Source of the DNA: a virus
Length of the DNA stretch: 64,000 nucleotides
IMG/VR virus record: IMGVR_UViG_3300025168_000033
Coordinates: 32,001 to 96,000 of that record
Strand: one strand, 5' to 3'
The position numbers were made by a program, and so were the translations under genes. Shown here one piece after another: positions 5,871 to 59,357 of this stretch. The notes beneath the pieces were generated by a model. That model did not search any database, was not told the origin of the DNA, and saw only the letters and a list, made by a program, of their open reading frames with translations. Position 1 is the stretch's first letter. Every line of letters begins with the position of its first letter.

Positions 5871-6515
5871 TCAGTCTTCATTCATCTTTGGTTTTTCATG
5901 AACGTAACCTAATTTACTAAACTTTTCGTGATCTTCTTGAGTTTCTGCTTTATATTCCTTTCCAGACTTAGGACAGTACATCATATGAGGTTCAAAATCT
6001 TTTCCTTCATTAGTTTCATCGTCATCACCATGTTTCTTACCACATGATTCATTTACAAAAACACCTTTAGGTACATCCATTAAAGTAACAGTTTTTCCGT
6101 CCCATGATATTACACCTACAGTATTTTTTTTCTTATCTACAATATAATAAGTATCTTTGTCTTCATCACCACCTTCTAAATTATGATCATCGTTAGATAA
6201 CATATCTTCTAGTTGATTAATGTCACCATCAAATTTGAAACTATTTTTACCTTCGTTAACTGATTCATTTGCTTTATACCATTTTGACAATTTTTTAACG
6301 TCTTTAGGCTTTAATTTGCTTGTTGAATCTGTTAATTCATAAGTAATCTTAGCAATAAAGTCTTTCTCATTATTAGCAACCTTTAAGGTATCTTCTAATG
6401 AAGCTTCTATTTGATCGTAATCTAAGGTTACTGTTTTACCTTCATATTCTGAATCTATTGAAAATTCATGTGAACTTTCATTTAACCATTCTTCGTAGCT
6501 TTGTAAATTTTTCAT
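5871..6515 (-). CDS. tagged putative internal head polyprotein
   Basis: N-term MKNLQSYEEWLNE; internal VNE/TNE sites; late promoter at 6537-6545. Confidence 0.65.
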   Translation of the reverse strand: MKNLQSYEEWLNESSHEFSIDSEYEGKTVTLDYDQIEASLEDTLKVANNEKDFIAKITYELTDSTSKLKPKDVKKLSKWYKANESVNEGKNSFKFDGDINQLEDMLSNDDHNLEGGDEDKDTYYIVDKKKNTVGVISWDGKTVTLMDVPKGVFVNESCGKKHGDDDETNEGKDFEPHMMYCPKSGKEYKAETQEDHEKFSKLGYVHEKPKMNED

Positions 6516-6545
6516 TTGTATAATGCTTTTGTTTTATTATATATC

Positions 6546-8354
6546 TTAGTCAACTATTTCATATATGTTAAAAGTATCACCTCCGCCATCATGAATTTCT
6601 AATATTTGATTTATTGATTCAGATATTGCCGGATCAATATAATCCAGTAATTCTTCTACCATTTCAGAATAATCTGAAGTATCAAAAATAGAAGTTACAG
6701 TTACACATGTCATTATTGCATCGTCATTTCCAGACTGAGCTGCATAGGATCCATTTTTAGTTCGTGAAAAGGTTGTAGCTTCTTCAATAGTTTTTATTTC
6801 CTGTATTACTAATCTATTCTTTCTAATACTTTCTTTTAATGCTTGACAATAAAGTTTTTTATTTTCACCGTTTAATCTTACACCATGTGAAGTTTTTTTA
6901 GAATTTAATCTGTGTCTATATTTTACAATTATTTCTTCGTCAAATTCATTTCTTGCAGGATAAAGTGTTTGTAGATTTTTAATTAATTCAGATCCGTATG
7001 TATTATATTCCAATACAACTCGTAAATTTTCTGGTTCAAAAATTGATACACATAATTCATAAATAATCTTAGATAAATCTGGGATTGACATTACATTGCA
7101 TCTAAATATTCCAACCTGTTTTAATTGAAAGAATTCATAAATCGATCCTGGATTTGTAATTTCCTTATGATATTTAGGGTCTATAGGAACAACCTTGAAT
7201 ATGTTTAAAATAGAATAATCCAGTCCCACACCCTCAGCTAAATCAATAGACAATACAAAGAAATTTTTATTGTCCTTTAATTCATCATCTACATTAAAAT
7301 CTGGATGCCATTTTAAAAATGAATAATCTAATCCAAGATCGTCCAAATCATCAAATTCATAAAACTTAAAATGAGTTTCATGCTTTTTAAGTTTCTTTAT
7401 TTCATTAGATCCTAATAATAACGAATCCGCATTTATAAATTGACAACCATATTGCTTATTAAATTCTTCTACATCACCACCAAGATTTGAAATTTCTCTT
7501 GCTTTCCAGACTTCATCACGGCCAGGCACATCCCACCAGTCTACTTTAAATCCAACATAATCTGAATCACCATCTAGAGCATCCTGCCATAAACGCTGAA
7601 ATAAATTATAGCCGTTCGGTGTTGATGTAATAATTATTTTTGATATTTCTGATGATGATAAAGTTGGATAAACGTTACCATAAAATTCTTCTGCTATATT
7701 AGCTTCTACGTGAGCAAATTCATCTAAAAATAATAAATGAATAGTAAAACCAATACCGGCATTTTTTGTAGTATTTTGACCCATTATTCTACATTCATTA
7801 TCAAACTTCATAGACATTACATCCTTTTTGATAACTCCTGGTTTCATGAAAAATGGAAGTCCTTCAACTACAGCTCTAATCTTATCTAGAATTTCTCTAG
7901 TAGTTGCGCCTTTATTTGCAAGTAACATTACATTCTTATCAAAGTTAAAAACTAAAAACCAGGTTAAAAATATTGCTGAACAAATAGTTTTACCTACCTG
8001 TCTAGGAGCAAGACAAATATTGAATCTATTTGCCTGAAAAGATCTAAGCATATCCTCCTGATAAGGTCGTAATTCAATTTTTGTATATCCTTCGTCAGTC
8101 ATTACCTGACAATATTTATTTGCAAAATATACAATATCTCTAGCACATTTCTTTAATTCTGACATCTCCATGTCAGTATATTCATATACTATATTTCCTT
8201 TCTTATATGCACTATGCCCCTCATAAAACGGATGTGGTACTTCATATCCATTTTCAATAGCTTCTATAGTTTGTTCAACCTTTTCAGTTGTCCATACTAC
8301 CCTATTGTCCTGTTCTTCTTTTTCTGGTTTAAACTTTGGTATTTTAAAACTCAT
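6546..8354 (-). CDS. gp17: terminase large subunit
   Basis: LRPYQ, Walker A PRQVGKT, Walker B LLFLDEFAH, STPNG, nuclease SIDLAEG and GNDDAIM. Confidence 0.95.
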   Translation of the reverse strand: MSFKIPKFKPEKEEQDNRVVWTTEKVEQTIEAIENGYEVPHPFYEGHSAYKKGNIVYEYTDMEMSELKKCARDIVYFANKYCQVMTDEGYTKIELRPYQEDMLRSFQANRFNICLAPRQVGKTICSAIFLTWFLVFNFDKNVMLLANKGATTREILDKIRAVVEGLPFFMKPGVIKKDVMSMKFDNECRIMGQNTTKNAGIGFTIHLLFLDEFAHVEANIAEEFYGNVYPTLSSSEISKIIITSTPNGYNLFQRLWQDALDGDSDYVGFKVDWWDVPGRDEVWKAREISNLGGDVEEFNKQYGCQFINADSLLLGSNEIKKLKKHETHFKFYEFDDLDDLGLDYSFLKWHPDFNVDDELKDNKNFFVLSIDLAEGVGLDYSILNIFKVVPIDPKYHKEITNPGSIYEFFQLKQVGIFRCNVMSIPDLSKIIYELCVSIFEPENLRVVLEYNTYGSELIKNLQTLYPARNEFDEEIIVKYRHRLNSKKTSHGVRLNGENKKLYCQALKESIRKNRLVIQEIKTIEEATTFSRTKNGSYAAQSGNDDAIMTCVTVTSIFDTSDYSEMVEELLDYIDPAISESINQILEIHDGGGDTFNIYEIVD

Positions 8355-8608
8355 TTAGCCTTTTTTAAAGTAATACTATCAACATTGACTTTTGAAACAT
8401 TAACTTTATCCTTCTTTGCGACCTTCTTGATTTCCATTTCGACCTTTTTGAATATCTTGTTTTTAACGCCTTCAAGTTCGCCACCAGGACCTAATAATTT
8501 TCTAGTAGCCTGTCCTTTTACGGCATTAGCTTTACGCTCTTTAGATTTTAATTTTGGTGGTCTTGCTCTTTCATTTAAGAATTCTTCGTATGATTGTAGA
8601 TTTTTCAT
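8351..8608 (-). CDS. tagged small basic putative internal head protein
   Basis: MKNLQSYEEFLNE followed by Lys-rich body. Confidence 0.65.
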   Translation of the reverse strand: MKNLQSYEEFLNERARPPKLKSKERKANAVKGQATRKLLGPGGELEGVKNKIFKKVEMEIKKVAKKDKVNVSKVNVDSITLKKAK

Positions 8609-8616
8609 ATTATATT

Positions 8617-9207
8617 TTATAGTTCAATTGATTTTATATCATATGCTGACGGACCCCAAAATAATACTTGTTCAACATCGTCACCAAAGTGATAATTTTT
8701 AATTGCATCAGTGGATTTAAATGTAATAGGATAAGATCCCCAATGCTTTGCGCCTTTTTGTAAAGTTCCGTATTTTTCTAACATATCATCATAATCAAGA
8801 CCATAGTTGTATCCAATATCTCTTTTAGGCTTATGTCGTGAAGACCAATTCATACCTAATTTAAGATAATCAGATTCACCGTAAATAAAGCCGTTTTTAA
8901 CAATATTTTGTCGAATTTTTTCTGATGATACAAAATGTACAATTAGTTTATCTGATGGATGATCTTCAGCAGGTGCATCAAAGAAATACATAGTTGGCAG
9001 TTTACTATAGTATTTTCGGTTATTAACTTTTGTAATTAGCTTAGCTGCATCAGACTCAGAATCAAGTTTTTCTTGAGGTAATATATGATCTTTGATCCAT
9101 TTTGCAAGTGACATATTGGTTCTATCAAAATGTTTCTTTAGAACATCAGTCCTTTTTCTACTAGCAGATTCATTCAAAAATTCATCGTATGACTGTAGAT
9201 TTTTCAT
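8617..9207 (-). CDS. tagged protein, possible ADP-ribosyltransferase-like fold
   Basis: MKNLQSYDEFLNE; LIVHFVS..I.KNGF, GYNYG, HFGDDVEQVLFWG. Confidence 0.45.
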   Translation of the reverse strand: MKNLQSYDEFLNESASRKRTDVLKKHFDRTNMSLAKWIKDHILPQEKLDSESDAAKLITKVNNRKYYSKLPTMYFFDAPAEDHPSDKLIVHFVSSEKIRQNIVKNGFIYGESDYLKLGMNWSSRHKPKRDIGYNYGLDYDDMLEKYGTLQKGAKHWGSYPITFKSTDAIKNYHFGDDVEQVLFWGPSAYDIKSIEL

Positions 9208-9208
9208 G

Positions 9209-9580
9209 TTATTTCTTTTTTATGTCATCATGTTTAGGCTTTGGTCCTTTACCTTTTAACCAATCTGCAATATCTTTATCCGCAGTTTTATATGCAGTTC
9301 CTTTTTCTGTAAATACCGTCATTCTAGCATTACCCCATGCATTAAATGCAGCCGGCTTTCCTAGCTTTTTTATGTGTGGTCTTACAGCACCCCAGTTAGT
9401 AATTGCTGCACCATATCCTCTTAAAAATGCTGCCATTAATGCATATTCTAAATCTTTTGCATTTTTAGCTCCTAATGATTTTTGTAATTTTGGATCTTTT
9501 GAAAGTTTTTCTGCTCTTGATTCTGCTGCACTTTGCTTTGCTTCATTCAAGAATTCATCATACGATTGTAAATTTTTCAT
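9209..9580 (-). CDS. tagged protein, DUF5824-like motif
   Basis: MKNLQSYDEFLNE; F.RG.GA......RP....W..AR pattern. Confidence 0.5.
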   Translation of the reverse strand: MKNLQSYDEFLNEAKQSAAESRAEKLSKDPKLQKSLGAKNAKDLEYALMAAFLRGYGAAITNWGAVRPHIKKLGKPAAFNAWGNARMTVFTEKGTAYKTADKDIADWLKGKGPKPKHDDIKKK

Positions 9581-10242
9581 ATTGTATATTGTGCTTTTGG
9601 TAGATTTTTTTTAGCAAATGTAATCCAGGTTTTAAGTACCTTATTTCTTTCAGTTTTAGTCATTAATTTTTGATCGATAAAATAATCAAGATATTCATTA
9701 AATACATCATTTAACGGTCGCTTTTCTGTTTTTGCTTGACGATACATTCCGTTTGCCATTGCTGGAACTTCATCCTTTAATAGAAAGTATTTATATAGAT
9801 TTCCTTTATCTCCGCTTATTTTATTTCTAATAATCGATCCAGTTATTTTAACCTTACTTGGACGTCTATTTTCACCGCCTTGAGTTAAATGTTCTATTTC
9901 ATGCCTAGCTGCATCCTGTAAAACTGCATTTAATTTTTGATAGCTTTGCGGTTCTTTAGCCGGATCCAAAGTAACAATAAATTCTATACCATTTACTGAT
10001 GGATAAGCACCAGCATCAACAATAACTCCTCGAGAATTTGATACCGCTTCACGTTTTATAAATAATTGTGCGTCATCAATAAATACCTTATCATTAAATT
10101 CACCTAAATCAAATTGTAACATTTCATGCTCTCCTTTAGGACTTGTTAATTTGATTATTGGCCAAATAGCATCTACTATTTCACCGGCAAGTTTATCATA
10201 ACTTCCTTCATTTAAGAATTGATTGTAATTTTTATATCTCAT
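9577..10242 (-). CDS. tagged zincin-like metallopeptidase
   Basis: MRYKNYNQFLNE; HEIEH zinc motif plus downstream YF...DEVPA glutamate. Confidence 0.6.
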   Translation of the reverse strand: MRYKNYNQFLNEGSYDKLAGEIVDAIWPIIKLTSPKGEHEMLQFDLGEFNDKVFIDDAQLFIKREAVSNSRGVIVDAGAYPSVNGIEFIVTLDPAKEPQSYQKLNAVLQDAARHEIEHLTQGGENRRPSKVKITGSIIRNKISGDKGNLYKYFLLKDEVPAMANGMYRQAKTEKRPLNDVFNEYLDYFIDQKLMTKTERNKVLKTWITFAKKNLPKAQYTI

Positions 10243-10246
10243 TTAA

Positions 10247-11026
10247 TTATTTATCTTCATCAGGATCAAAATCTACATCCTGAATATCTGCCTGAATTTG
10301 TTGCATCATATTTCTATTGCCACGATTAATATGACCGTCTGTTGATTTTGCCGGAGCATCACCTGTTTCAATAGCTTCTGATGGCGAATAAATATCTATA
10401 TCATGTTTAAGCTTTTTAGCACCTTCTTCCATTGCATGTAAATGTAATGTTTGATGCTTCATAATATCTAGCATTGTTTTTTGTAATCCTCCCAGAACTT
10501 CAAACATTCTTGGATGTAATTCACCACTATCAATAGTTCTTAATAAGGTTGTAAGTGCATGTTCAGCAGTTTGCATTTGAAACATTAATGATGCTAATGT
10601 CATTTCATCGACATGAGCTTTCATTTTAATATATTCGTTAGTTTCTATGACGTCAGCACTTAAATATAATTTAAGCAATGAGTTCATTAATTTTTTCCCT
10701 TTCTTTGCTGAATTAGATTTTACTTCCAGATAATCCATTTGTGGAAGGTCAATTCTTGCAGGAAGGTCTGAATCATTAGCTGTTTCCACCGGTAATGATG
10801 ATGCTTCAGCCTGATCCAATAAATCTTTAATTGAATCTCTAGCTTCCTGTTTTGCCGGATCAACTTTATTTTCTTCTGGATTTTCCATAAGTTTTTGTTT
10901 TATATGTATTAATGCTAATTCCTGTGATTTGAATTCTATTGTTTCTAGATATGCATTATCAGGCATATCAAATAAATCTACGGCCCAGTCCTTTCCGTCT
11001 TTATATGGCTTAGAATATCTTATCAT
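10247..11026 (-). CDS. gp16: terminase small subunit (gp16-like); start likely at 11026 (MIRYSKPY)
   Basis: GELHPRMFEVLGGLQKTM resembles the T4-like gp16 HPRAYEV.GQL.K motif; upstream of gp17. Confidence 0.65.
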   Translation of the reverse strand: MIRYSKPYKDGKDWAVDLFDMPDNAYLETIEFKSQELALIHIKQKLMENPEENKVDPAKQEARDSIKDLLDQAEASSLPVETANDSDLPARIDLPQMDYLEVKSNSAKKGKKLMNSLLKLYLSADVIETNEYIKMKAHVDEMTLASLMFQMQTAEHALTTLLRTIDSGELHPRMFEVLGGLQKTMLDIMKHQTLHLHAMEEGAKKLKHDIDIYSPSEAIETGDAPAKSTDGHINRGNRNMMQQIQADIQDVDFDPDEDK

Positions 11027-12838: not shown

Positions 12839-13426
12839 TTATTTTTTTTGAGCTAAATAACCTTTAATTGCATCTATTGCATTATCATCGCCCATTGTAT
12901 ATCCAAGGCCAACAAATTTTCCAGTATCAACTTTTTTACCGTTTAATGATAATGTCCACGTTGTGCGTTGACCCATTTCTTTATAGTGGTCACTCCAAGC
13001 CTCACCTCCAGATACTTCAGTATACTTCCATTTATCTCTACCCCATTTAGCTTCAAAATAATAATCAGTATCATCATAATCATCTTTTGTGATTTTGATT
13101 TTATCATGCTTAGGTTTTTCTTTATTAATTTTATCGACTTTACCATATTTTTTCTCTAGGCCTTCAATATATTCAACAAGTTCTTTTTCATATTCTATTG
13201 TTAACTGCATATTAGTATCCCAACGGTTTGGCTCGTTATTCAATAAATTAATACTAAATTCAACACCACGCTGATAATATTTGTAGACTTTAAGAATTTT
13301 ATTTTTTTCTTTTTTAAAAGTAACATAAAGATCCTCATTGTAATTGGCATCTTTTAATGCTGCTAAAACTGAATTTATTTTAACAGCTTCATTTAAAAAT
13401 TCATCGTATGATTGTAGATTCCTCAT
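12839..13426 (-). CDS. tagged putative internal head protein
   Basis: MRNLQSYDEFLNE. Confidence 0.65.
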   Translation of the reverse strand: MRNLQSYDEFLNEAVKINSVLAALKDANYNEDLYVTFKKEKNKILKVYKYYQRGVEFSINLLNNEPNRWDTNMQLTIEYEKELVEYIEGLEKKYGKVDKINKEKPKHDKIKITKDDYDDTDYYFEAKWGRDKWKYTEVSGGEAWSDHYKEMGQRTTWTLSLNGKKVDTGKFVGLGYTMGDDNAIDAIKGYLAQKK

Positions 13427-13428: not shown

Positions 13429-14127
13429 TTATTTTGTTACTTTTCCTACGACTTTATAGATATATCCTTTATGACCATCTCTCATTCGGGCTTCTCCTTC
13501 GTTTTTTCTTTCTGTTATTTTGAATTTTGCACTACCAAAAATATTTTTGAAATATTCCATAGCAAGCTTTACTACATGGAATCCTTCTAATTCAGTTTCT
13601 ATTTCTTTTTCGTTTTTCTTGATTTCTGAACTGGATTGTGTATCACCATGTCCTTTTTCGTAATGTATCCAGGTCAAGACAAAATCACTAATATTAAATA
13701 TATATTCTTCCTTCTTTTCATCATATTTAAACATGACGTCATTACTATTGCCATATTGATATTCCTTGTTTTTGATGCCTTCTATCATTTCAGCAATCTT
13801 TCTATCTAGGTCGATTGATTTGCCTTCTTTACCATCAGGTGACATGAAAAAAACTTTTCTTCCTTTCTTTGCTGCTATTAGCTCACCATGTTCAACCAAT
13901 GAATCCACCCATTCATATCCATATTGAGTACCTCGATTAACCTTGAAATGATTTCTAGGAAGTTCTTTTACTTTACCTGAAAGAATATCTTTTACCGATT
14001 GAATCCAGCCTTCTAAATAAGTTGATCTTTTATGATTGCTTCTTAATGCATTATAATAGTCATCCATACTGGATCTTTTATAATAGCTCTCGTTTAAAAA
14101 TTCGTCGTACGATTTAAAATTTTTCAT
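13429..14127 (-). CDS. tagged putative internal head protein
   Basis: MKNFKSYDEFLNE. Confidence 0.65.
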   Translation of the reverse strand: MKNFKSYDEFLNESYYKRSSMDDYYNALRSNHKRSTYLEGWIQSVKDILSGKVKELPRNHFKVNRGTQYGYEWVDSLVEHGELIAAKKGRKVFFMSPDGKEGKSIDLDRKIAEMIEGIKNKEYQYGNSNDVMFKYDEKKEEYIFNISDFVLTWIHYEKGHGDTQSSSEIKKNEKEIETELEGFHVVKLAMEYFKNIFGSAKFKITERKNEGEARMRDGHKGYIYKVVGKVTK

Positions 14128-14129: not shown

Positions 14130-14564
14130 TTATCTATGTATTTTATTTTCTTCACCTTGAATTAATTTACCTTTTGATGTAAACACCATAGGTCCGTAAA
14201 TATCATAAGATTTGCTTGAATTAAAAACAATCTTCATGTTAGCTACTACTTTACGCATAGCTGATAATGATTCCATGAAAAGAAAGTATTTACCATTTTC
14301 TCTTCTATCATCTAACAAATTAATGTGTCCAAATCGATTTAAATCCATCCCAGCTGTTATTTCTTCTATCATGTTAGATAATTCAAACCCTTTAGGTTTT
14401 TTTACTTTATCATCTTCACTTTGACCAAAATCTTCGCGATCAATAAACACACCATAATAATCAGTAGCATTATTAACATTAAATCCTTCTAACCATGGTG
14501 AATAAATAGATTTAGGTTTTCTTGCTTCGTTTAGAAATTCATCGTATGATTGTAAATTTTTCAT
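14130..14564 (-). CDS. tagged putative internal head protein
   Basis: MKNLQSYDEFLNE. Confidence 0.65.
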   Translation of the reverse strand: MKNLQSYDEFLNEARKPKSIYSPWLEGFNVNNATDYYGVFIDREDFGQSEDDKVKKPKGFELSNMIEEITAGMDLNRFGHINLLDDRRENGKYFLFMESLSAMRKVVANMKIVFNSSKSYDIYGPMVFTSKGKLIQGEENKIHR

Positions 14565-14573: not shown

Positions 14574-15041
14574 TTATTTACGCCAGTCCCAAACACTGTC
14601 TTTGTTTTTAATTCTAGAAGAACTACCATAGTCAATTGATGTTCCTCGATTTATAAAAAGTACTTTATTATATAGCAAGGCATCACCAAAGTTAGTTCCA
14701 AAAAAATCAGACACTTGTCCATATTCTTTAGCACCTTTTTCTTTAAGAAACTTAAAAAATTTAGAAATCATTTCTAATTTTATGTTTTTATTAGGTTCAA
14801 GATTTCCTTTACGCGTTGGTTTAGGAACTATTGAATCCATTTCTTTGCTTTTTTTACCATCACCCCTTTTATACCATTGATGTTTTACTTTTTGTTCAGG
14901 AACAATAACGAATCCACTTTCTATATATGAATCATCGCTTTCATCATTAAATTCCATAGAAATAGTATAAGCTACTTTCATTAGTCTTTCTTCGACTTTA
15001 CTTTCATTCAAGAATTCATTATATGAATGTATATTTTTCAT
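14574..15041 (-). CDS. tagged putative internal head protein
   Basis: MKNIHSYNEFLNE. Confidence 0.65.
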   Translation of the reverse strand: MKNIHSYNEFLNESKVEERLMKVAYTISMEFNDESDDSYIESGFVIVPEQKVKHQWYKRGDGKKSKEMDSIVPKPTRKGNLEPNKNIKLEMISKFFKFLKEKGAKEYGQVSDFFGTNFGDALLYNKVLFINRGTSIDYGSSSRIKNKDSVWDWRK

Positions 15042-15252: not shown

Positions 15253-15552
15253 TTACGAATTTAATATTTCTTCTGGCGGTTTATTATCTTTAGGTTTTTT
15301 TATTTTTTTATATGCATCAATAAATTTTCCACCGAATACATAACCACCAAATAAGGTCATTGCATATTCCAATGCATTTATTATAATTTTAAATTTGTCG
15401 ACCTGGACTTCAGACTTAAATATTCCTGCATAAAGTAATATTCCTAACGTTAAATAATATGCAGCAACAGACCACAGCAAATATACCCTACCTTGAGAGT
15501 ATTTATTATTTTCTGTTAGCATGTCCTTGAAAATATTCAAAACCTTGTTCAT
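15253..15552 (-). CDS. small two-TM membrane protein (holin-like)
   Basis: SQGR followed by two hydrophobic helices and a basic tail; late promoter at 15575-15583. Confidence 0.5.
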   Translation of the reverse strand: MNKVLNIFKDMLTENNKYSQGRVYLLWSVAAYYLTLGILLYAGIFKSEVQVDKFKIIINALEYAMTLFGGYVFGGKFIDAYKKIKKPKDNKPPEEILNS

Positions 15553-18525: not shown

Positions 18526-18542
18526 TTGTCTTTATTTTAATT

Positions 18543-18580
18543 ATAGTTAAATATAACAATAATAGTTGAAATAAAAAAAT
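18543..18580 (-). promoter_or_regulatory. early-type promoter (TTTTTTA...TATATTTAACTATA)
   Basis: same core as the repeats at about 20.4, 21.05, 21.47 and 57.43 kb. Confidence 0.55.
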
Positions 18581-21011: not shown

Positions 21012-21012
21012 G

Positions 21013-21430: not shown

Positions 21431-21432
21431 GA

Positions 21433-24098: not shown

Positions 24099-24140
24099 AT
24101 TGATTTTATTTATTTATTTATATATCTTTTAATAGAGCAC

Positions 24141-50487: not shown

Positions 50488-52713
50488 TTAAAGTGATCTA
50501 TATTTCTTTTGAATAGCCTGCCAAACTTTTTCTGGTGTAGTATTTCTACCGGTAGCAAATTTATTAACGCTAGTAGAACCACGTTTATTAGGTGAAGTTA
50601 TTGATAATTGAATGAAAGGTTTGTCACCAATTTCGTTATATTGGAATGCCCATATTAATGCTAATTCATCAACTTTAACAGTGAATTCTACTGCACCATA
50701 AAAGTTTTCTTTTACATCTTCAACCTTCATATTTCCTAAATATTTGTCACCCTTTAATAAAAATTCCGTAAAAGATTTATACCAGTCGTTCGATCTTTTT
50801 TCAAATTCTGACAACGGCCATGCTTCATTAACAGATTCAAATTTCAGATTTTGAGTAACTTCTGGTGGAAGATCGTTATATTCAGAATCAATATATTTTT
50901 CTACATTATCTGGGTCTTTAACTGCTGTTAATAGTGCTGATTCTCTTTCGTCATCACTTAATTCATCCCATTTAATTGATTTTTGAGATTTCTCGTTTAA
51001 AAATTCGTCTAGTGATTCCGCAACTAATTTCATGTTTGGCTTTGATTTTGTCTGATTAATATTATCAAATATTCGTTGTCCAAATTTAGAAAGTTGATAT
51101 GTTTTTTCACCGCTTTCATTTTTTGATACTTTAAAGTAATTCATGTTTGATTTGAACCATCGAGTTTGATTAACTGATTTTCCTAAATCTTCTTCAACAC
51201 GAATTAACATATCCTTGATTTGTTCTTCGGTCATTATATTGTTACCAATATATTTGATAATTGAATTACGTAAGGGTGCTTTTTCATTTATACGTCTAGC
51301 ATCATAAATTCCATATTTACGTTTAATAGTATGTTTAGCTTCATTAACACTAACTATCTTAGCTTGTTTTATACGTGATTTATTTACTAATTCTTTTTCT
51401 TTCGTTTCAGCTTCTTCTTTAGTTTTAAATATTCCAGATTTAGCATTTTCCCCATCTTGGGTTTTATATTCAACTCTAAAACCTTCCCCTGATTGATTAA
51501 CTGATTCAGTTATAGAATTCAACATTTCCTGTTTACTAAATACTAAGCTTTTTGGATGACTTGAAAGTTCAAATGTAGTACTATACATAGCACTAAGTTT
51601 AGCACCAATTTCTTTACCATTTTTATCTGTTACGATATATTCATTGAAAGCGTTTGACTTTCTACCATAATCAGTAACAGTATAAACATTAGTATCTGTA
51701 TTAAATTTAGATCCGATTTCTATTTTATTGAAAATTTTAGTACCTAGCATACTGATTTTACTTCCAGAAATAGTTCCCTCATTTAAGTCATAAGATTCAC
51801 TAAATAATCTTCTACCTGTTTTATCTTCTAGATGTAATTTTGCTTTAGGATATTTCTCTTGCATTACATTAAATGTAGCAGGAGCAACATCTGGAGTAGA
51901 AACTGGTTCTTGATGAATTACTTTGCCATCTTGTATAACTACAATTACTGCTGGATAGCTTCCTTGAGTTGCAGCTTTATATACTTTACGTCTAGATGCT
52001 TCAGTAACTAATGATTCATCCATTACCATATATTTAGATGGAACTATAAATTCTCCTTGTCCACTTTTTACAATCATTCCTTTATTACCACGAGTCATCT
52101 TAATAACTTTATAAACATCGTCATAATCTAAAGAAACACCTTCCTTATCTAGAATTTCTTCAACAAAATGTGGAGCTCCCAGAACTACAAAATCACCTTT
52201 CTTGAATTTAGATTCGTTAATTTCTTTATTTTCCTCATTTGCTAAAGGATTAGGAATAGTAATTGATTTACCTTGATAAAATCTCTTTTTTAGTTTATCA
52301 ATAGTATCATTCTTCTTTAAATAGTAAGGATGCTCATATTGATCTGAATCATCTCCTACAATAAGAATAATATGTTCTCCTTCATCAGAACTATATATTT
52401 TAAAGTCTGAACCTAATACTTTACCTTTTATATTCTTTTTAGCCTCATTTACAGATTCGGTATATAATATTTCAGAATCAAAATTATATTTAGGACCATC
52501 TTGTTCAGCATCTTGTACATCTATAGTTCCGTTTTTATTAATATTGATAACTCTGAATTCAGTTCCAACTGAGGCACCTTTATGCATTTCTTCATCTCTA
52601 TCATCGTCACCAGTTTGATATATTACAACAATATCACCGACTTTTGATCGTTCGCCATTGTAATATTTTGCAGATGCCTCATTCAAGAAGTCTTCAAATT
52701 TTTCTATTGCCAT
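50488..52713 (-). CDS. tagged multidomain polyprotein
   Basis: MAIEKFEDFLNE; about 8 internal (V/I/L)(N/T)E junctions separating small domains. Confidence 0.65.
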   Translation of the reverse strand: MAIEKFEDFLNEASAKYYNGERSKVGDIVVIYQTGDDDRDEEMHKGASVGTEFRVININKNGTIDVQDAEQDGPKYNFDSEILYTESVNEAKKNIKGKVLGSDFKIYSSDEGEHIILIVGDDSDQYEHPYYLKKNDTIDKLKKRFYQGKSITIPNPLANEENKEINESKFKKGDFVVLGAPHFVEEILDKEGVSLDYDDVYKVIKMTRGNKGMIVKSGQGEFIVPSKYMVMDESLVTEASRRKVYKAATQGSYPAVIVVIQDGKVIHQEPVSTPDVAPATFNVMQEKYPKAKLHLEDKTGRRLFSESYDLNEGTISGSKISMLGTKIFNKIEIGSKFNTDTNVYTVTDYGRKSNAFNEYIVTDKNGKEIGAKLSAMYSTTFELSSHPKSLVFSKQEMLNSITESVNQSGEGFRVEYKTQDGENAKSGIFKTKEEAETKEKELVNKSRIKQAKIVSVNEAKHTIKRKYGIYDARRINEKAPLRNSIIKYIGNNIMTEEQIKDMLIRVEEDLGKSVNQTRWFKSNMNYFKVSKNESGEKTYQLSKFGQRIFDNINQTKSKPNMKLVAESLDEFLNEKSQKSIKWDELSDDERESALLTAVKDPDNVEKYIDSEYNDLPPEVTQNLKFESVNEAWPLSEFEKRSNDWYKSFTEFLLKGDKYLGNMKVEDVKENFYGAVEFTVKVDELALIWAFQYNEIGDKPFIQLSITSPNKRGSTSVNKFATGRNTTPEKVWQAIQKKYRSL

Positions 52714-52730: not shown

Positions 52731-53585
52731 TTATTTATCTTCAGATAGTTCGTCTTTTAATTGAGGATAATATTGATGTGTAGTTGTATCAGTCATGGAT
52801 TTGAATGATTTTATATCATCTTCTATTAAAGCTTTACGAACTTTAGATGCACTAATATTATCATCAGTACGTTTTATTTCATGAGCTTTAAATTCTGGAT
52901 CTACATTTAAATCCAATCTATAAGAATCTTTTTGAATTTGACCGCTATAGGCTTTTAATCTATCTGATCCAGTACCCCACAAAATAGGCTCATATTCAGG
53001 ACGTAATTCATTATAAATTGTATCTATACCCGCTCTTGAAATAGTTCTGAATCCTTCTATAAATTTATGTTTCTTTGCAAGATCGTTAAATATTTGCTCT
53101 ATTAAACCTTCACTAAACGGTGTTTTTTCCTTGTTAATTTTCTTTGCACGCACCATAAGTACTATTACAGGATATCCATTTTCTTCGGACAAAGATTTAA
53201 GAACTTTTATATGTCCTAGCGTCGGAGGTTGAAAACGTCCCGCAATAATATTAACTTTTTTATTGCCAGGTTCTGTTGAATCTACCTTTAAAGCTTCATT
53301 TAAAGATTCAGATATTTTTCCGGTTTTAGATACTTTATAATATGTAGGTATTTTATCCCAATCTTTACCGTTAGTTTTTATGCCTGAATACATTTGATTT
53401 TTATCACTTTTCCATGCACCACCAGTTCCATCTTTATATTTGATCATGGTTGGTGTTTCTTCATAAAACCACCAATCGCCATCAGAATGCTGTGCTAAAT
53501 ATCTTGCCCAATCTGGGATATTTTTAAATTTAGGAAATTGTTTTCCTTCATTTATGAAATCAAAAAATCTTTTGAATCTATTCAT
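52731..53585 (-). CDS. tagged HxGH-type (cytidylyltransferase-like) nucleotidyltransferase with an N-terminal extra domain
   Basis: MNRFKRFFDFINE; ISESLNE| then GRFQPPTLGH, GSDR, ISASKVR. Confidence 0.75.
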   Translation of the reverse strand: MNRFKRFFDFINEGKQFPKFKNIPDWARYLAQHSDGDWWFYEETPTMIKYKDGTGGAWKSDKNQMYSGIKTNGKDWDKIPTYYKVSKTGKISESLNEALKVDSTEPGNKKVNIIAGRFQPPTLGHIKVLKSLSEENGYPVIVLMVRAKKINKEKTPFSEGLIEQIFNDLAKKHKFIEGFRTISRAGIDTIYNELRPEYEPILWGTGSDRLKAYSGQIQKDSYRLDLNVDPEFKAHEIKRTDDNISASKVRKALIEDDIKSFKSMTDTTTHQYYPQLKDELSEDK

Positions 53586-53586: not shown

Positions 53587-54816
53587 TTAATTGTTTAATT
53601 TTAGAAATTCAGAAAATGATAAAGTAACATCAGATTCATTTGTATTTTTAGCTATTGTAACATTATCAATATTTGTAATGATTTGATTGATGTCATTAAT
53701 CATAGCCTTATCTATAACCTGTGTTGCTCGTTTACGTAATTTTTTAAATGTTCCAATAAGAACTTTAAAAGTATCATGATAAAGCGGCTTAGACTTTATT
53801 AATTTTAATGCTTCTTTATTATCTATAAATTTATAGTTAACTTTGAATTCAGGTATTTTTGCAAAATCTGGAGTATCAAATTCAAATCCATCTATGACAG
53901 ATTTCTTTTTAGATACAAAGTCTACAAATATCTGTGACATTAAATCGATATATCTATCGTCTTTTGTATTACCCGATATTGAATAAGAATCAACACCATT
54001 AATTCTCATAAATTCAACCATTTGCATAATAGCAATTGCCGTTGAATCCGGTGTTTGTCTTGGCTTTTGTCTGTCTTTTGATTTTAATCTAGCATTTGCA
54101 GTAAAAAGTGGATCGACCATTTTAGCACTAAATTCTTCTTTAGGACCGCTTATGAATTTAAAAACAATTCCTTCAATAGGCTTGTCTAGATCATTTTGTA
54201 ATGCAGTTTTTTTAAGCTTTGGATTAATTATAGATAGAATATATCTTACAAATGAAGTAGTTTCAAATTTCTTAACTAGATCTTCAAATGGTGTTTGAAT
54301 AAATTCCAATAGGTCTTCTCTTTGTTGTGGTTTTAATTTGCCACTAAAATATACAGGCGGTTCATCAACATTAATTATATTAGCCCATTTACTAAGAACC
54401 TTTGGATCGGTAATAACTTTCTTGGTTCTTCCACCTGAATCAACAATTTTTATATCTGTAAGAACTAAAGAATTTTTAGGCATTTTATCATATAACGTAT
54501 TGACTGGCTTCTTGTTTACAAAATATTCAAATCCAAATCTAAAATCTGTTGGCAATAATTTCTTTTTAGAATCTGCAATAGCCTCAATAAATTCAATAGG
54601 CCTTTCAAATACAGACATCATAGTTCTTTCAACCTTACTAATAGGATTTTTAGGATCTCTTTTATAGAATAAAATTGATTGATCCGATTGCTTTTGAAAT
54701 TCAAATCTAGTACCATCCAATTTCTCAGATACTAATACATAATTATTTAAAAGTGACTTAACAAATTCTTCTCCTTTTTTAGAAGATATATCAAATAAGT
54801 GTGGTAATCCGGCCAT
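53587..54816 (-). CDS. ATP-dependent RNA ligase-like (covalent nucleotidyltransferase) protein
   Basis: motif I SEKLDG, FGFEY, IEGIVF, AKMVD; C-terminal TNE..LSFSEFL. Confidence 0.7.
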   Translation of the reverse strand: MAGLPHLFDISSKKGEEFVKSLLNNYVLVSEKLDGTRFEFQKQSDQSILFYKRDPKNPISKVERTMMSVFERPIEFIEAIADSKKKLLPTDFRFGFEYFVNKKPVNTLYDKMPKNSLVLTDIKIVDSGGRTKKVITDPKVLSKWANIINVDEPPVYFSGKLKPQQREDLLEFIQTPFEDLVKKFETTSFVRYILSIINPKLKKTALQNDLDKPIEGIVFKFISGPKEEFSAKMVDPLFTANARLKSKDRQKPRQTPDSTAIAIMQMVEFMRINGVDSYSISGNTKDDRYIDLMSQIFVDFVSKKKSVIDGFEFDTPDFAKIPEFKVNYKFIDNKEALKLIKSKPLYHDTFKVLIGTFKKLRKRATQVIDKAMINDINQIITNIDNVTIAKNTNESDVTLSFSEFLKLNN

Positions 54817-54835: not shown

Positions 54836-55990
54836 TTATTTTATTTTCATTCCAATCATCATATTCTTATCGGAAATACCAATAACAATACCATCTCTTT
54901 CATATTCAGTTCCGTCAGCATAAGCACCAATTGGCTTAACATATTTAAATCCAAGATTTTTAATAAGTTTTGAAGTAATATCAAATCCTAGACTGGATTC
55001 AAATCCAGTAACTTTACCAAATCCAGTAACAAATCCTGTTTTAGCTGCAATTATACCTTTAGGATTTTTTTGAAATGCTTCAGGAGCAACAGTCTTAAAT
55101 TCTTTTACAAATGCTTTCCATATTGGATCACTAGATAATGTTTTTCTGTCCCAAGTAAAATCACGAATCATTGAAAAACTATCCGATTCAAATACTTCTA
55201 TTCCATTATCACCATAGAATTTTTTAATTATATCGTAAAGATCGTCCTTTGCATCTTGATTATTTTTTATAAAAACTTTTAACGGTCTTATTAGATTTAA
55301 AAAGTTTTTTCTACTAAGCTTCATTTCTTCATCTATAAATTCAGACTCATTAATAGATTTAAGATTTAATTCAATTAAAGTATTAACACCATCTCTATGA
55401 ACCTCAGAAAATTTGACATCACCAAAATCAGATAAAATATCTTTTAAAATTGTTGTATCTAATTCTATTATCTCATCTTTTAAATGTTCATAAGCAGAAG
55501 TATAAAATTGTAATTTGCCACTTCTTAATCGTGCTATTAATATTCCAATATTTTCAACTGCTAGCCAGGCATGCCTATTTCTTTTGCCTCTTCGACTTAC
55601 TTTACGAGCCATTAATTCTTCTATTAAAAGCGCTTGAAATCTAGAACTAGCCTGATCAACACCACTATAAGTAATATTATCTGTTACAAAAAAATCATAT
55701 AGTGTATCAGCTTTAAAAGTTTCATTTAATGGAAATGACCATTGTCTTGATGACATTGGTGCATAAGGAGCTAATTTCTTCCATGCCTTTTCAGCATCTT
55801 TACGTTTACCAGCTTTATCCAGATCCTGTATCATTTGATTAGTTGTTTCCCAATCAGCAATACCAGCCTTATAAGCTCTCGGATCATCACTCATCATATA
55901 AGTCCAATCCATAGATTTTAATTGTGCCTCAAGATCCTTGATAGTAACTCTTTCATTTAAGAAATCGTCAAACTTTTTAAATTGTCCCAT
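54836..55990 (-). CDS. tagged multidomain polyprotein
   Basis: MGQFKKFDDFLNE; DWTYMMSDD domain; PLNE, SINE, VFE junctions. Confidence 0.6.
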   Translation of the reverse strand: MGQFKKFDDFLNERVTIKDLEAQLKSMDWTYMMSDDPRAYKAGIADWETTNQMIQDLDKAGKRKDAEKAWKKLAPYAPMSSRQWSFPLNETFKADTLYDFFVTDNITYSGVDQASSRFQALLIEELMARKVSRRGKRNRHAWLAVENIGILIARLRSGKLQFYTSAYEHLKDEIIELDTTILKDILSDFGDVKFSEVHRDGVNTLIELNLKSINESEFIDEEMKLSRKNFLNLIRPLKVFIKNNQDAKDDLYDIIKKFYGDNGIEVFESDSFSMIRDFTWDRKTLSSDPIWKAFVKEFKTVAPEAFQKNPKGIIAAKTGFVTGFGKVTGFESSLGFDITSKLIKNLGFKYVKPIGAYADGTEYERDGIVIGISDKNMMIGMKIK

Positions 55991-56004: not shown

Positions 56005-56943
56005 TTAATTCCATCCGCCAGAATAGTAATCACTACCACCTGAAACTTTTGGTATTTTGAATGTTTTTCCGTTTATTGTAAATGTAGCTGTGTAAAAATA
56101 TGTAGTAGAAAATGAAGAACTAACAACTGCGCTATGCTCACTTCCTAGCATCTTGATTTCTTTTACATCTATTTTATCCCACTTAACATCATCACCTTTT
56201 AGTATAATTTCTTTAATGTATGCAAATGGTTTAGCCATTGGAGGTTGAACCCATGCCAATTTACCAAGATTAGTTCCGTTTCCACCAGGTCTATCTGCAA
56301 CTTTATACATGTCTGTCTTATATTCTATTAGTTCTCTGATATTGAAATCCGTCCACCAACTTCTTGCAAATTGAGCCATCTTTGGAATTCCAAATTTTAA
56401 TATATGAGCCTTCTCAACATCAGTAAAAGTTTTAATTATATCATAAAGCTTGTATTTTTTGTTAAGTTCACGTCTATCTTTACTTGCAAGACCAGACCAT
56501 AATGCATATATAATCTCATCATCGTCATTATCTTCAATTAGCTTAGTATATGAAGCTGCTAATCTAACTGCTTCTTCCTTGCTTCTAGGATCTGCATTAT
56601 TACGATGTGCATCTTTATAATCATCACCAAAGTTTCTGAATACCTCTGTAAATTCCTTTATCATCTTTGAATTTGGTGTTCTACCTGTTCCAGCTGCAGC
56701 TAATATATCATTTTTATCGTTTTCACCGAGTTCAGCAAATTTAGGATCTTTAACAAGCTTTGCTAATGTTATATTTGTATCAATTCCAGCATTTTTTAAT
56801 GACCAAGCAAGATCTCCTTGTTTACTTTCAACATCACCTTTACTATAAGAATTCTTTATTGTATAAACTTTCTTTACAACTTTCATATAATCGCCGTAAT
56901 AAGCTTCGTTTAAAAATTGTTCATAGGATTGTATCTTCTTCAT
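56005..56943 (-). CDS. tagged putative internal head protein
   Basis: MKKIQSYEQFLNE. Confidence 0.65.
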   Translation of the reverse strand: MKKIQSYEQFLNEAYYGDYMKVVKKVYTIKNSYSKGDVESKQGDLAWSLKNAGIDTNITLAKLVKDPKFAELGENDKNDILAAAGTGRTPNSKMIKEFTEVFRNFGDDYKDAHRNNADPRSKEEAVRLAASYTKLIEDNDDDEIIYALWSGLASKDRRELNKKYKLYDIIKTFTDVEKAHILKFGIPKMAQFARSWWTDFNIRELIEYKTDMYKVADRPGGNGTNLGKLAWVQPPMAKPFAYIKEIILKGDDVKWDKIDVKEIKMLGSEHSAVVSSSFSTTYFYTATFTINGKTFKIPKVSGGSDYYSGGWN

Positions 56944-56952
56944 AATATGTAT

Positions 56953-57384
56953 TTATTTGTTTAGGTCTTTATTAAAATCAATGTAACTATCACGATCTGT
57001 AAGTTTTTTCATTCCTTGAACCATATCTCTAGTTAATGATTCTTTATTATCGTATGCAATAACTAAAAAGAAGTCTGCGTTGTTACCACTGTCATTTTGT
57101 CTATCTGAAGATTCCCATCCCGGACCCCATTTCACCCAAGATCCATTTACTGATTCAAGATTTTTCACATCCTTAGTATAAAGATCACCAGCAGCATTGG
57201 TTGTTAACAAATATGCAAAGTCTTCTTTATATTTGAAGTTTTTGTCTTTTGGTTCATAAACATCGAATCCGAGTTTCTTAAGACCTTTTTTGATATTAGG
57301 CATATCACGTATAATGTAATGTGGTTCATATCTAGAAGTATTAGCTTCGTTTAAAAATTGTTCATATGATTGTATCTTCTTCAT
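56953..57384 (-). CDS. tagged putative internal head protein
   Basis: MKKIQSYEQFLNE; late promoter at 57403-57411. Confidence 0.65.
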   Translation of the reverse strand: MKKIQSYEQFLNEANTSRYEPHYIIRDMPNIKKGLKKLGFDVYEPKDKNFKYKEDFAYLLTTNAAGDLYTKDVKNLESVNGSWVKWGPGWESSDRQNDSGNNADFFLVIAYDNKESLTRDMVQGMKKLTDRDSYIDFNKDLNK

Positions 57385-57525: not shown

Positions 57526-58455
57526 TTATGCCATTTCACTTGGATAAGGAAATCCAGCCTTGACAATTCCTTCTTTATATACTTTTATTATTTCACTTAA
57601 TTTGTGTTTGTGAATAAATTTAGATGAATTCATCCAGTTCCAAATAGATTCGAATGAATTTAAATCATTCACCTTTCCTTCGGGTCCTAAAACAAATTTA
57701 GCAATATCATCAATATTTTTTGTAATAGCTTTGTCTGCACCTTTAATTGTAGATGCATTTTTCTTTCTTCCCCTTTTACCGTCAAATGATTTAGTTTGTA
57801 TTTTTAAACCGTCATGTGCAGTAAGAGTATATTTTTGAAAGTCTTTTACTAATCCTTCATATTCACCGCCAAATTCTTTCTTATAGATATTTGGTTCACC
57901 ATCAAAATCGATATTTTGAATAATATCATAAATAAGTTTAGTTCTATAAACTCCTTTATATTTTGATTCTTCTTTTGTAAAGTCTGGTGAATGATAAATG
58001 AATGTTGCTAATTTAATATCATCAACAACCATAAAATCTATTTGAACAAATTTATCTGTAATCTTGCCTTTTTCATCATACTGTGGAAATTTAATGTTTG
58101 TAACACCTAATCCTTTAGTAAGATTTGTTTCATATTTAGGAAATGTTTTTGTTAGTTGATTATAAACTTCCGTAACAACATCGCCAAATGATAATTTATT
58201 TGCAGCACCATAAACTAATCCGTTTATTGAAATATCAATATCACCAGATGTAGATCCAGCTTTCTTTTTAAATGTACTTCCTAATACACCATATTCATCT
58301 TTATTTAAACCAAGAACTGGCTTGATAAATGTCTTTAATAAAACGTCAAATGTCGGTTTTTGATATTCCGCTGGAATAGGATGAGTGCCATTAAATGCAT
58401 TACCTGATTCCAGTAATCTTTCTTCAACAAAAGCTTCAAATAATTTAAATTCCAT
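57526..58455 (-). CDS. tagged Pol-beta-superfamily nucleotidyltransferase
   Basis: MEFKLFEAFVEERLLE|SGNAF; LGS..KK....SGDIDI; VQIDFM (third Asp). Confidence 0.7.
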   Translation of the reverse strand: MEFKLFEAFVEERLLESGNAFNGTHPIPAEYQKPTFDVLLKTFIKPVLGLNKDEYGVLGSTFKKKAGSTSGDIDISINGLVYGAANKLSFGDVVTEVYNQLTKTFPKYETNLTKGLGVTNIKFPQYDEKGKITDKFVQIDFMVVDDIKLATFIYHSPDFTKEESKYKGVYRTKLIYDIIQNIDFDGEPNIYKKEFGGEYEGLVKDFQKYTLTAHDGLKIQTKSFDGKRGRKKNASTIKGADKAITKNIDDIAKFVLGPEGKVNDLNSFESIWNWMNSSKFIHKHKLSEIIKVYKEGIVKAGFPYPSEMA

Positions 58456-58470
58456 TTATTGATTATATTT

Positions 58471-58896
58471 TTAAGCTATTTTATACAATGCCTTATATAC
58501 TGTATTAATTTGCTTTTCTAATGTATTTAACTTTTTAGGATCCATTTTTTTAATAGATTCAGCAACCCAATACTGTGTACCTTCATGACCTAAAAGAGCA
58601 ACTAAGTCACCGAATGCTTTCATAGTCGAACCTGCATTAGCTTCATTTACTACATCATTAACCGATTCATAAACATCGATTTCTGGATTTTTTGATTTAA
58701 TTAATTTCTTTTCCGCCGAGTCAATAGCATCACTTAAATTATCCTGATATTCAGGATTAATAAATCCTTCCCAATCACCAGAATTTTGTAATTCAGTTAA
58801 TCCAACTATACAGGCTTCTATTTCCATCTCTTCTAATTTAATATTAGATGCTTTACCCTCAGTTAAAAAGTCTTTATATGCTTTTATATTTTTCAT
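58471..58896 (-). CDS. tagged putative internal head protein
   Basis: MKNIKAYKDFLTE; internal VYESVNDVVNE|A. Confidence 0.6.
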   Translation of the reverse strand: MKNIKAYKDFLTEGKASNIKLEEMEIEACIVGLTELQNSGDWEGFINPEYQDNLSDAIDSAEKKLIKSKNPEIDVYESVNDVVNEANAGSTMKAFGDLVALLGHEGTQYWVAESIKKMDPKKLNTLEKQINTVYKALYKIA

Positions 58897-58913
58897 ATTT
58901 AAAAAAATGATTT

Positions 58914-59357
58914 TTATTTAGTTGTAGAATCCATACTTGGTGTATCTTTATCACCAGTAACTTTAAATGTTTCTCCTTCAAATTCAAATTCATCTTTACC
59001 ATCATCGATAGCTTTTTGTCTAGCTGCAGAAAATGCATTACCTTCTTTTATTTTAGCTTCATTAGCTGCTTCTTCTTCTTCACTTTCACCATCACCGTAT
59101 TCATTAGCTGCTTCTTCTTCTTCTTCACTTTCACCATCACCATATTCATTAGTTTTAGCTTCCATCATAGGTTTTAAAGAATCATAAAATTTAATTTGAT
59201 CCTCTTCGCTTAGTTCGCTTGGACTAGATACTTTAAACTCTTTTAATTTTTCGTTAAAAAGTTGAATATGCTTTTTATATGCATTCTTTTTTGAAGCTTC
59301 AGCTATTGCTGCAGTTCTTTGTTTCTTGAATTTTGAAAATTTTAAAATATTTCCCAT
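58914..59357 (-). CDS. acidic protein with degenerate tag and internal tandem repeat
   Basis: MGNILKFSKF..IAE; (NEYGDGESEEEE[E]AA)x2; late promoter at 59381-59389. Confidence 0.6.
   Translation of the reverse strand: MGNILKFSKFKKQRTAAIAEASKKNAYKKHIQLFNEKLKEFKVSSPSELSEEDQIKFYDSLKPMMEAKTNEYGDGESEEEEEAANEYGDGESEEEEAANEAKIKEGNAFSAARQKAIDDGKDEFEFEGETFKVTGDKDTPSMDSTTK
59058..59152. repeat. in-frame tandem repeat (42 bp + 45 bp units)
   Basis: ttcattagctgc(ttc)n actttcaccatcacc[g/a]ta twice, differing by one TTC. Confidence 0.9.

Follow-up and report, generated by a model that had tools for sequence, protein, structure and literature searches.

The IMG/VR virus record IMGVR_UViG_3300025168_000033 contains a 64,000-nucleotide (nt) stretch (positions 32,001-96,000), referred to here as the window and equal to bases 7446-71445 of a 108,411-bp IMG/VR virus record (CheckV completeness 37%), in which many otherwise unrelated genes begin with a similar short peptide, a candidate capsid-targeting leader that we call the tag. 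The record has a G+C content of about 30%, its credible genes all lie on the minus strand, and the same phage is represented in a protein collection by a longer, 166,532-bp assembly. The phage is huge, uncultured and, by its gene content, T4-like: PHROGs and Pfam searches assign a head and tail core of major capsid protein, portal, gp2-like end protector, head-closure proteins, tail sheath and tail tube, along with a large terminase, a gp55-like late sigma factor, a gp3/15-like sheath stabiliser and a replication set (gp32-like single-stranded DNA-binding protein, primase, helicases, a split family-B DNA polymerase and UvsX). The capsid protein is nearest to that of the 462-kb uncultured phage LR756500.1 (56% identity), with further matches to Lak megaphages of Prevotella (40%) and to Sphingomonas phage PAU and Tenacibaculum phages (about 35%). 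Tagged open reading frames (ORFs), named here by their start positions, number 23 in the window and 26 of 110 in the record, roughly a quarter of its genes. They are listed below with three marginal or truncated cases; a slash marks the putative cut, and HMM denotes recovery by a hidden Markov model (HMM) of the tag.

5871-6515, minus: tagged, 214 amino acids (aa), MKNLQSYEEWLNE/S, own GATATATAA motif ahead; HMM, 29.2 bits
8351-8608, minus: tagged, 85 aa, isoelectric point (pI) 10.6 after tag removal, directly upstream of the large terminase gene; HMM
8617-9207, minus: tagged, 196 aa; HMM
9209-9580, minus: tagged, 123 aa, C-terminal domain corresponding to an untagged 70-aa homologue in the close relative G004; HMM
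9577-10242, minus: tagged, 221 aa, short variant MRYKNYNQFLNE/G
12839-13426, minus: tagged, 195 aa; HMM
13429-14127, minus: tagged, 232 aa; HMM
14130-14564, minus: tagged, 144 aa; HMM
14574-15041, minus: tagged, 155 aa; HMM
15253-15552, minus: tagged, 99 aa, variant MNKVLNIFKDMLTE/N, after a GATATATAA motif; first of the tagged run 15552-13426
22022-22903, minus: doubtful member, 293 aa, MKLHSLNE/HIELTE/
22955-23671, minus: tagged, 238 aa, tagged homologue in G004; HMM
23691-24098, minus: tagged, 135 aa, closely following the major capsid gene, second L-N-E 6 residues past the tag; HMM
30493-31578, minus: tagged, 361 aa, variant MGRYKNYSEFLSE/A; first gene of the unit with head-closure, end-protector and portal genes
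33681-34160, minus: tagged, 159 aa, MKLKNYKDFLNE/S
49365-50102, minus: tagged, 245 aa, MKKLISFEQFVINE/S, ParB/Srx-like DGHHR motif (motif level only), tagged G004 homologue with 66% identity
50145-50459, minus: tagged, 104 aa; HMM
50488-52713, minus: tagged 741-aa putative polyprotein, eight [LIV]NE sites
52731-53585, minus: tagged, 284 aa, cytidylyltransferase-fold nucleotidyltransferase (NTase; GRFQP..GH motif)
54836-55990, minus: tagged, 384 aa, MGQFKKFDDFLNE/R
56005-56943, minus: tagged, 312 aa, tag DNA near-identical to that of neighbour 57384; HMM
56953-57384, minus: tagged, 143 aa, after a GATATATAA motif; HMM
57526-58455, minus: tagged, 309 aa, variant MEFKLFEAFVEE..LLE/S, Pol-beta NTase motif (GS..GDID); leader of the G004 homologue longer, MRNMLKFKDFVSTFLNE/S
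58471-58896, minus: tagged, 141 aa, MKNIKAYKDFLTE/G; HMM
58914-59357, minus: degenerate tag (MGNILKFSKFKKQ...AIAE/A), 147 aa, G004 homologue fully tagged
63765-64000, minus: 3' portion of the gene for a tagged 354-aa NTase of Pol-beta type, which starts at 64829 (MKFKRFNEFLNE/GGW), past the window end

The tag is 12-14 residues long and centres on the core [YF]-x-[EDQ]-F-[LIV]-N-E. The 22 starts named in the original prediction are all ATG codons that open the motif. Fourteen (6515, 8608, 9207, 9580, 13426, 14127, 14564, 15041, 23671, 24098, 50459, 56943, 57384 and 58896) carry the full 13-residue form M-[KR]-[NK]-[LIF]-x-[SA]-[YF]-x-[EDQ]-[FW]-[LIV]-[NT]-E, every one of them with [YF] at position 7, [FW] at position 10 and a final [LIV]-[NT]-E in which the Glu is invariant, and eight (10242, 31578, 34160, 50102, 52713, 53585, 55990 and 58455) carry a shorter variant; the start at 15552 (MNKVLNIFKDMLTE) was missing from the earlier list and is added here. 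Three more tagged starts lie outside the window in the same record, at positions 64829, 65960 and 93317 when the window's numbering is continued. Two starts, 22933 and 59357, had been described as degenerate. This is correct for 59357, which has lost V-N-E and is genuinely degenerate because its G004 homologue bears a full tag (MQKFSEFVNE), but not for 22933, a TTG upstream of a promoter-like ATATAAATA, where the likely start is the ATG at 22903; that start (MKLHSLNE...) is itself a weak case, without relatives. The original prediction had also proposed scanning the genome and its relatives with an HMM of the tag. A 13-column model run over six frames of the 108-kb record scores the 14 full tags at 23.9-31.5 bits and nothing else above 11.5 bits, each good hit being on the coding strand and 2-10 codons past an in-frame stop, and among hits of at least 10 bits in the record and two relatives, 92 are N-terminal and 2 internal.

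Because tagged genes form tandem clusters, they could belong to one fast-evolving paralogous family in which the N-terminus alone is still recognizable. We rejected this explanation after all-against-all BLASTP with the first 16 residues removed found no mutual similarity (best E = 0.2), in line with the earlier claim that the proteins share nothing after the Glu. The span in size from 85 to 741 aa, the differing folds and families (RimK-like ATP-grasp, cytidylyltransferase-like, Pol-beta NTase, ParB-like motif) and the occurrence of the same domains untagged or fused elsewhere likewise argue against paralogy, which we regard as extremely improbable.

A second explanation places the conservation in the nucleic acid, as a translation-initiation or regulatory element or a recombination cassette, and makes the peptide incidental. 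Two neighbours, 56943 and 57384, are near-identical in their tag DNA, which suggests duplication or gene conversion, and shared 39-nt stretches could favour gene swapping. However, the same codon is used in 60.2% of same-amino-acid tag pairs against 65.2% expected from genome codon usage, with the codons for Ser, Leu, Tyr, Phe, Asn, Asp, Gln and Glu all varying. Since this share does not exceed the genome expectation, there is no nucleotide constraint beyond the peptide and selection acts at the peptide level, as the synonymous variation noted earlier had implied; relatives, moreover, preserve the peptide pattern using other residues. A nucleotide-level element was rejected on the codon evidence and is very unlikely, and recombination at tags may occur as a by-product.

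The closest known counterpart of the tag is the capsid-targeting sequence of T4, MKTYQEFIAE (bioRxiv 10.1101/2021.01.19.427310), as the original prediction had it. In T4, targeting depends mainly on residues 4 and 7 (Tyr and Phe) and processing on residues 8 and 10 (Ile and Glu) (PMC9026906). The tag core Y-x-E-F-L-N-E aligns with T4 Y4-Q-E-F7-I8-A-E10, placing Y, F, L/I/V and E at identical spacing. Other T4 head proteins (NC_000866) follow the same logic, with gp24 starting MAKINE.., gp67 MEGLIE.., gp21 ..LLIE.. and Alt MELITE.., and with gp22 full of [LI]-A-E sites. The statement that T4 has only a few such proteins was too modest, because T-even phages have diverse internal proteins that share the targeting sequence only (PMC3012670). 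The tag most similar to that of T4, MKTFQELINE, opens a small acidic 116-aa protein beyond the window, at 65610-65960 on its scale. Both relatives conserve this protein, in contrast to most tagged genes, and it may belong to the core rather than to the cargo.

A protease that could process such leaders is encoded by the phage, and it is fused to a scaffold-like region:

24193-25869, minus: major capsid protein (gp23-like), N-terminus with M-I-N-E/A and P-I-I-E/S, kept in LR756500.1
25898-27736, minus: 612-aa fusion of a gp21-like S77 prohead protease with a scaffold-like C-terminal region; 9 [LIV]NE sites and 9 tag-like heptads
26675-26839, minus: tandem scaffold repeats of about 14 residues (..IEYSKSLAE, ..IEYSKMVAE, ..IEYSKHISE, ..FEYQTTINE), each ending in a cleavage-type site

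The N-terminal domain of the 612-aa protein matches Peptidase_S77 in Pfam (E = 6e-11; S77 outscores S80) and aligns to the T4 gp21 structure 5JBL (E = 1.8e-4). Its His70 and Ser125/126, which we take from the gp21 literature to be the catalytic residues, are invariant in 40 homologues, and its N-terminal L-I-L-E8 resembles the L-I-E9 of gp21. The roughly 400 residues that follow are scaffold-like and carry the nine [LIV]NE sites. Across the protein, [LIV]NE occurs at 1.47 per 100 aa against 0.10 expected from composition (about 15-fold; Poisson P ~1.5e-6 against the observed background), and its [YF]xxx[LIVM]xE heptads are the densest among large proteins in the record. An exhaustive search collected 3783 representatives of this family. 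A MAFFT consensus of 40 members shows a periodic I-x-Y-x-x-Y-L-A-E-x-x-D, and the C-terminal parts of 139 representatives hold a mean of 5.6 [YFW]xx[YFWHM][LIVM]xE heptads compared to 0.11 in shuffles. The tag thus appears to resemble, in part, one unit of the scaffold repeat (family consensus Y-x-x-Y-L-A-E). Tenacibaculum phage PTm1, a cultured distant relative in which protease and scaffold are also fused, has neither the tag nor aromatic scaffold heptads. Further along the record, an untagged 420-aa protein at 32370-33632, with a AGATAAATA motif ahead of it, contains [LIV]NE five times (1.19 per 100 aa) and corresponds in both relatives to the C-terminal part of longer proteins; it may be another head-core protein.

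The cleavage-type motif also recurs at conserved junctions within and between proteins. In orthologues of the 354-aa NTase, E/GGW is invariant: five have short tags of 12-15 residues that differ in sequence and length, and in two the tag is replaced by an unrelated N-terminal extension of 100-210 residues with L-K-E or V-Q-E still at its end. The AlphaFold2 model of this protein has a predicted local distance difference test (pLDDT) score of 86 overall and below 50 for residues 1-13, which are disordered. The GS...DxD motif and weak fold matches assign it as a Pol-beta-type NTase, with the weak Foldseek hits of the model against the PDB (E at least 0.01) all belonging to that type. A further set of junctions lies in the 741-aa tagged protein, whose eight [LIV]NE sites delimit about 8 segments and which includes the following elements:

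50992-51015, minus: internal tag-like copy S-L-D-E-F-L-N-E/K, aa 567-574
51793-52002, minus: 70-residue module, aa 238-307, with L-V-T-E before it and D-L-N-E 4 residues after it; 46 invariant columns in 36 sequences

A Pfam search of the 741-aa protein returned no domain and no peptidase; its relatives bear DUF5824, DUF5661 or DUF3008. The 70-residue module begins ASRRKV, ends RLFSE and is found in at least 248 proteins, with 75-90% identity across hundreds of metagenomic proteins of very different lengths. Its predicted fold is a helix, two strands, a helix and two strands (model residues 11-80 mostly above pLDDT 85), and neither the PDB nor the Atlas gave a convincing structural match. The module sits right after the N-terminal tag in some homologues and 90-960 residues into others, with [LIV]-[NT]-E immediately ahead of it in nearly every homologue among the matches listed. 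Because these sites precede the module whether it is tagged or internal, the 741-aa protein looks like a polyprotein with the prohead-protease motif at its joints.

These junctions bear on whether the leader does anything other than be removed. As a propeptide only, it would be cut off by the prohead protease or another protease for activation or release, with loading left to other determinants. The cleavage site is indeed the best-supported element of the tag (invariant Glu, conserved junctions, enrichment in the scaffold), and targeting is argued solely by analogy with T4. However, conservation runs 6-10 residues upstream of [LIV]-x-E and covers both aromatic positions that target in T4. Internal polyprotein junctions, by contrast, are mostly just a short [ES]-[VL]-[NT]-E; the additional N-terminal residues therefore seem unneeded for cutting, and we consider it unlikely that the leader acts in processing alone.

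The tag might alternatively address a different partner, such as a chaperone, a leader-reading modifying enzyme of the kind acting on ribosomally synthesized and post-translationally modified peptides (radical S-adenosylmethionine (SAM) enzymes), a neck or tail site, or a cellular location, and several tagged proteins are enzymes. Set against this, the tag is hydrophilic and acidic and has neither signal-peptide nor lipobox features. Its last three residues are the motif enriched in the scaffold and found at the capsid protein N-terminus. No tail gene is tagged, nor, as stated in the original prediction, is any replication gene, and terminase and portal are also untagged. A radical-SAM-type leader was rejected since PF04055 is absent from the record and from a 91%-complete relative, with 14 of 14 control genomes positive. 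We therefore think some other addressee improbable.

Expression context was examined through upstream motifs. GATATATAA occurs in 19 copies on the coding strand and none on the other, and AGATAAATAA in 8 and none. GATATATAA or AGATAAATA, or the related ATATAAATA, is found 17-32 nt ahead of the genes for sheath, tube, portal and neck proteins. The relevant features are:

2504-2512: GATATATAA motif ahead of the tube gene, 2480
5758-5766: GATATATAA motif ahead of the sheath gene, 5737
24118-24126, minus: late-type promoter motif GATATATAA, example, 28 nt upstream of a tagged gene
27820-29418, minus: portal protein, untagged, ATATAAATA motif ahead
31600-31968, minus: gp55-like late sigma factor (phrog_234, E = 1.5e-12)

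As previously claimed for several tagged genes and clusters, the motif heads the units that hold most tagged genes, with a near-match only at 34160, and within these units later genes follow at 19 nt or less. The promoter-like motif and the gp55-like factor together suggest late co-expression of tagged genes with head and tail genes. Early-looking genes share another upstream motif. Leaders of about 50 nt, almost the same in sequence (..TTTAACTATAAATAATTAATAAC..ACACA), stand ahead of several small non-structural genes, at 21431-21480, 21012-21061, 20337-20386 and 18526-18575, and probably represent an early or middle promoter class distinct from the late-type GATATATAA.

The tag extends well beyond this record. 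LR756500.1 has about 26 ORFs with a MKYIKEYEEFLNE-like start, and a 294-kb, 91%-complete relative with a capsid protein 65% identical has 46 of 434 ORFs tagged. A scan of IMG/VR found at least 120 stretches with the tag, many holding 5-13 tagged ORFs each, and four of five tested contigs belong to the same capsid lineage. Tag-rich IMG/VR loci, compared at the DNA level with cultured phages, gave no cultured relative. The genes that carry it turn over quickly: homologues in G004 were found for 10 of 26 tagged and 65 of 84 untagged genes (P = 5e-4), and in LR756500.1 for 2 of 26 and 63 of 84 (P = 7e-10). Tagged genes are thus hypervariable, with much faster turnover than untagged genes, in an arms-race-like pattern.

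Pfam and PHROGs place almost none of the window's tagged proteins in a family, the exceptions being 53585 and weak hits to PHROGs of unknown function. Recognizable members in the record are a RimK-like ATP-grasp protein (E = 8e-34), a cytidylyltransferase-fold enzyme, two Pol-beta-type NTases and one protein with the ParB/Srx-like DGHHR motif. Among 100 tagged proteins of relatives, Pfam finds ATP-grasp and cytidylyltransferase-like domains four times each and LRR, KTSC, PAP2, AAA, DUF5824 and ART-PolyVal once each. Median pI is 8.85 for mature cargo and 5.95 for untagged proteins (P = 0.03). Domain types are what points to anti-defence or host-takeover roles (Pol-beta NTases, the ParB-like motif and a relative's ART-PolyVal), which we infer on that basis only. 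The tagged RimK-like ligase lies at 91839-93317 on the window's scale, amid baseplate and tail genes, and is also tagged in the close relative; other contigs, too, have ATP-grasp proteins of this kind among their tagged products.

One domain may be tagged, untagged or fused in different genomes. The HxGH nucleotidyltransferase domain of 53585 forms the C-terminus of an untagged 653-aa ligase-like protein in LR756500.1. An untagged ligase-like gene with a KxDG motif, at 53587-54816, ends 1 nt ahead of tagged 52731-53585, and the two correspond to that single untagged protein. In another IMG/VR contig, 3300031566_000207, a stretch of about 400 nt (10191-10594) inside a cluster of 13 tagged ORFs matches the huge phage LR756502.1. 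A core of about 70 nt in it also matches genes for peptidoglycan hydrolases in phi29-like Bacillus phages, and the tagged cargo there may include a wall-degrading enzyme. Elsewhere in the window, the family-B DNA polymerase is encoded by two genes, 46936-48345 and 41247-42419, which lie about 4.5 kb apart with ribonucleotide reductase and other genes between them.

We consider it likely that the leader is an expanded T4-type capsid-targeting sequence coupled to a prohead-protease cleavage site. Because the tag matches both the T4 tag and the phage's own scaffold repeat, the capsid probably receives dozens of diverse proteins as cargo. Tagged genes would be transcribed late, alongside head and tail genes, and the 12-14-residue leader, resembling one scaffold repeat unit, would let each protein join the scaffolding core as the prohead forms. 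The S77 (gp21-like) protease, fused to the scaffold, would then cut after the Glu of [LIV]-x-E, reducing the scaffold to short peptides, freeing cargo of its leader and splitting polyproteins at domain junctions. Mature cargo, much of it basic and nearly all lineage-specific, its known members being nucleotidyltransferases, a ParB-like protein and a RimK-like ATP-grasp ligase, would stay in the head with the DNA and probably enter the cell at infection. Scaffold binding, cleavage, head retention and ejection of tagged proteins are predicted steps. A more specific proposal, which we put forward tentatively and hold to be somewhat doubtful, is that the tag is a single copy of the scaffold repeat, such that 13 residues would suffice both for co-assembly with the protease-scaffold and for release by the cuts that dismantle it.

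Several observations weigh against these interpretations. At +3, the Phe of the tags contrasts with Tyr or His in the scaffold, the upstream K-N-I of the tags is offset by one residue relative to the repeat, and the tag HMM gives the scaffold repeats no score. In LR756500.1 the tags favour Asn at the x position and the scaffold sites favour Ala; co-variation of this residue between tags and scaffold sites, compared in three genomes, is therefore weak. The T4 gp22 scaffold has no aromatic heptads, so the idea of scaffold mimicry does not transfer from T4. The gene at 59357 has lost its cleavage site and is nevertheless kept, the pI gap between cargo and untagged proteins is modest, and some tagged proteins are sizeable enzymes (a 52-kDa ATP-grasp protein, NTases) for which work in the cytoplasm is equally possible.

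The proposed system shares much with T4 capsid targeting: a short N-terminal leader on otherwise unrelated proteins, aromatics at i and i+3 ahead of [IL]-x-E, an S77 protease of gp21 type, scaffold sites of the same kind (here read from sequence), genes that are late in T4 and probably so here, to judge by the promoter-like motif, and basic, fast-evolving cargo. It differs in that the leader has 12-14 residues, with Asn rather than Ala before the Glu, and is carried by about 10-24% of genes (46 in the near-complete relative) compared to a handful in T4. In addition, protease and scaffold are joined in one protein, the leader is similar to a scaffold repeat that is absent from T4 gp22, the same sites appear to punctuate polyproteins, and the system is known from sequence alone. 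The hypervariable internal-protein loci of T-even phages likewise hold diverse, quickly replaced cargo sharing the leader only, which has been read as an arms race (PMC3012670, PMC9026906). There, however, few genes at one or two loci of 170-kb coliphages are involved, whereas here many dispersed clusters occur in uncultivated phages of about 300-460 kb that are related to phages of Bacteroidota and whose hosts are probably Bacteroidota.

In giant phiKZ-like phages (phiKZ, 201phi2-1 and SPN3US, with an S80 protease), a gp21-related protease likewise cleaves dozens of proteins inside the head after Glu, and their propeptides are thought to target proteins to the prohead. Those propeptides, however, mostly exceed 100 residues, include no shared portable tag and are cleaved at S/A/G-x-E, and just 8 of about 50 head proteins of SPN3US are processed. 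In the present phage the leaders have 12-14 aa, with L, I or V two residues before the Glu. Polyvalent proteins (Iyer et al. 2017, PMC5512222) are late-encoded strings of 2-15 conflict-type domains per polypeptide (Pol-beta NTase, ParB-like, ART), predicted to be delivered with the DNA, and the domain set overlaps with ours in that ART-PolyVal and DUF5824 also occur in tagged relatives. Their processing is attributed in that source to built-in zincin-like peptidases, whereas here the prohead-protease motif stands at the junctions and most cargo is single-domain with an N-terminal tag. T4 Alt offers a parallel to ART-PolyVal and similar domains in tagged relatives. Encapsulins, too, use a short portable peptide to load arbitrary proteins into an HK97-fold shell; their loading peptides, unlike the leader proposed here, usually stand at the C-terminus, interact directly with the shell and are not known to be cleaved.

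In the open-access literature searched, descriptions of a capsid-targeting sequence are limited to T4-like coliphages and those of long propeptides to phiKZ-like phages, with no link to huge phages, and we did not find the likeness of a tag to a scaffold repeat or protease-punctuated polyproteins. The novelty is in scale and architecture, not in principle. If correct, our interpretation would give many of the 'dark matter' genes of huge phages a first functional label, capsid cargo, and would make a 13-residue motif a handle for listing candidate injected effectors with anti-defence or host-takeover roles in thousands of uncultivated genomes. It suggests scaffold-repeat mimicry as a possible mechanism of T4-type targeting, and the tag as a possible portable label for loading foreign proteins into large capsids. 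Should the tag prove to be a single scaffold repeat, about one gene in ten across a large clade of uncultivated huge phages, amounting to at least 40 proteins and to polyproteins besides, would supply an evolvable, plug-and-play cargo delivered with the DNA, at a scale far beyond descriptions of T4; the protease-scaffold family has thousands of representatives.

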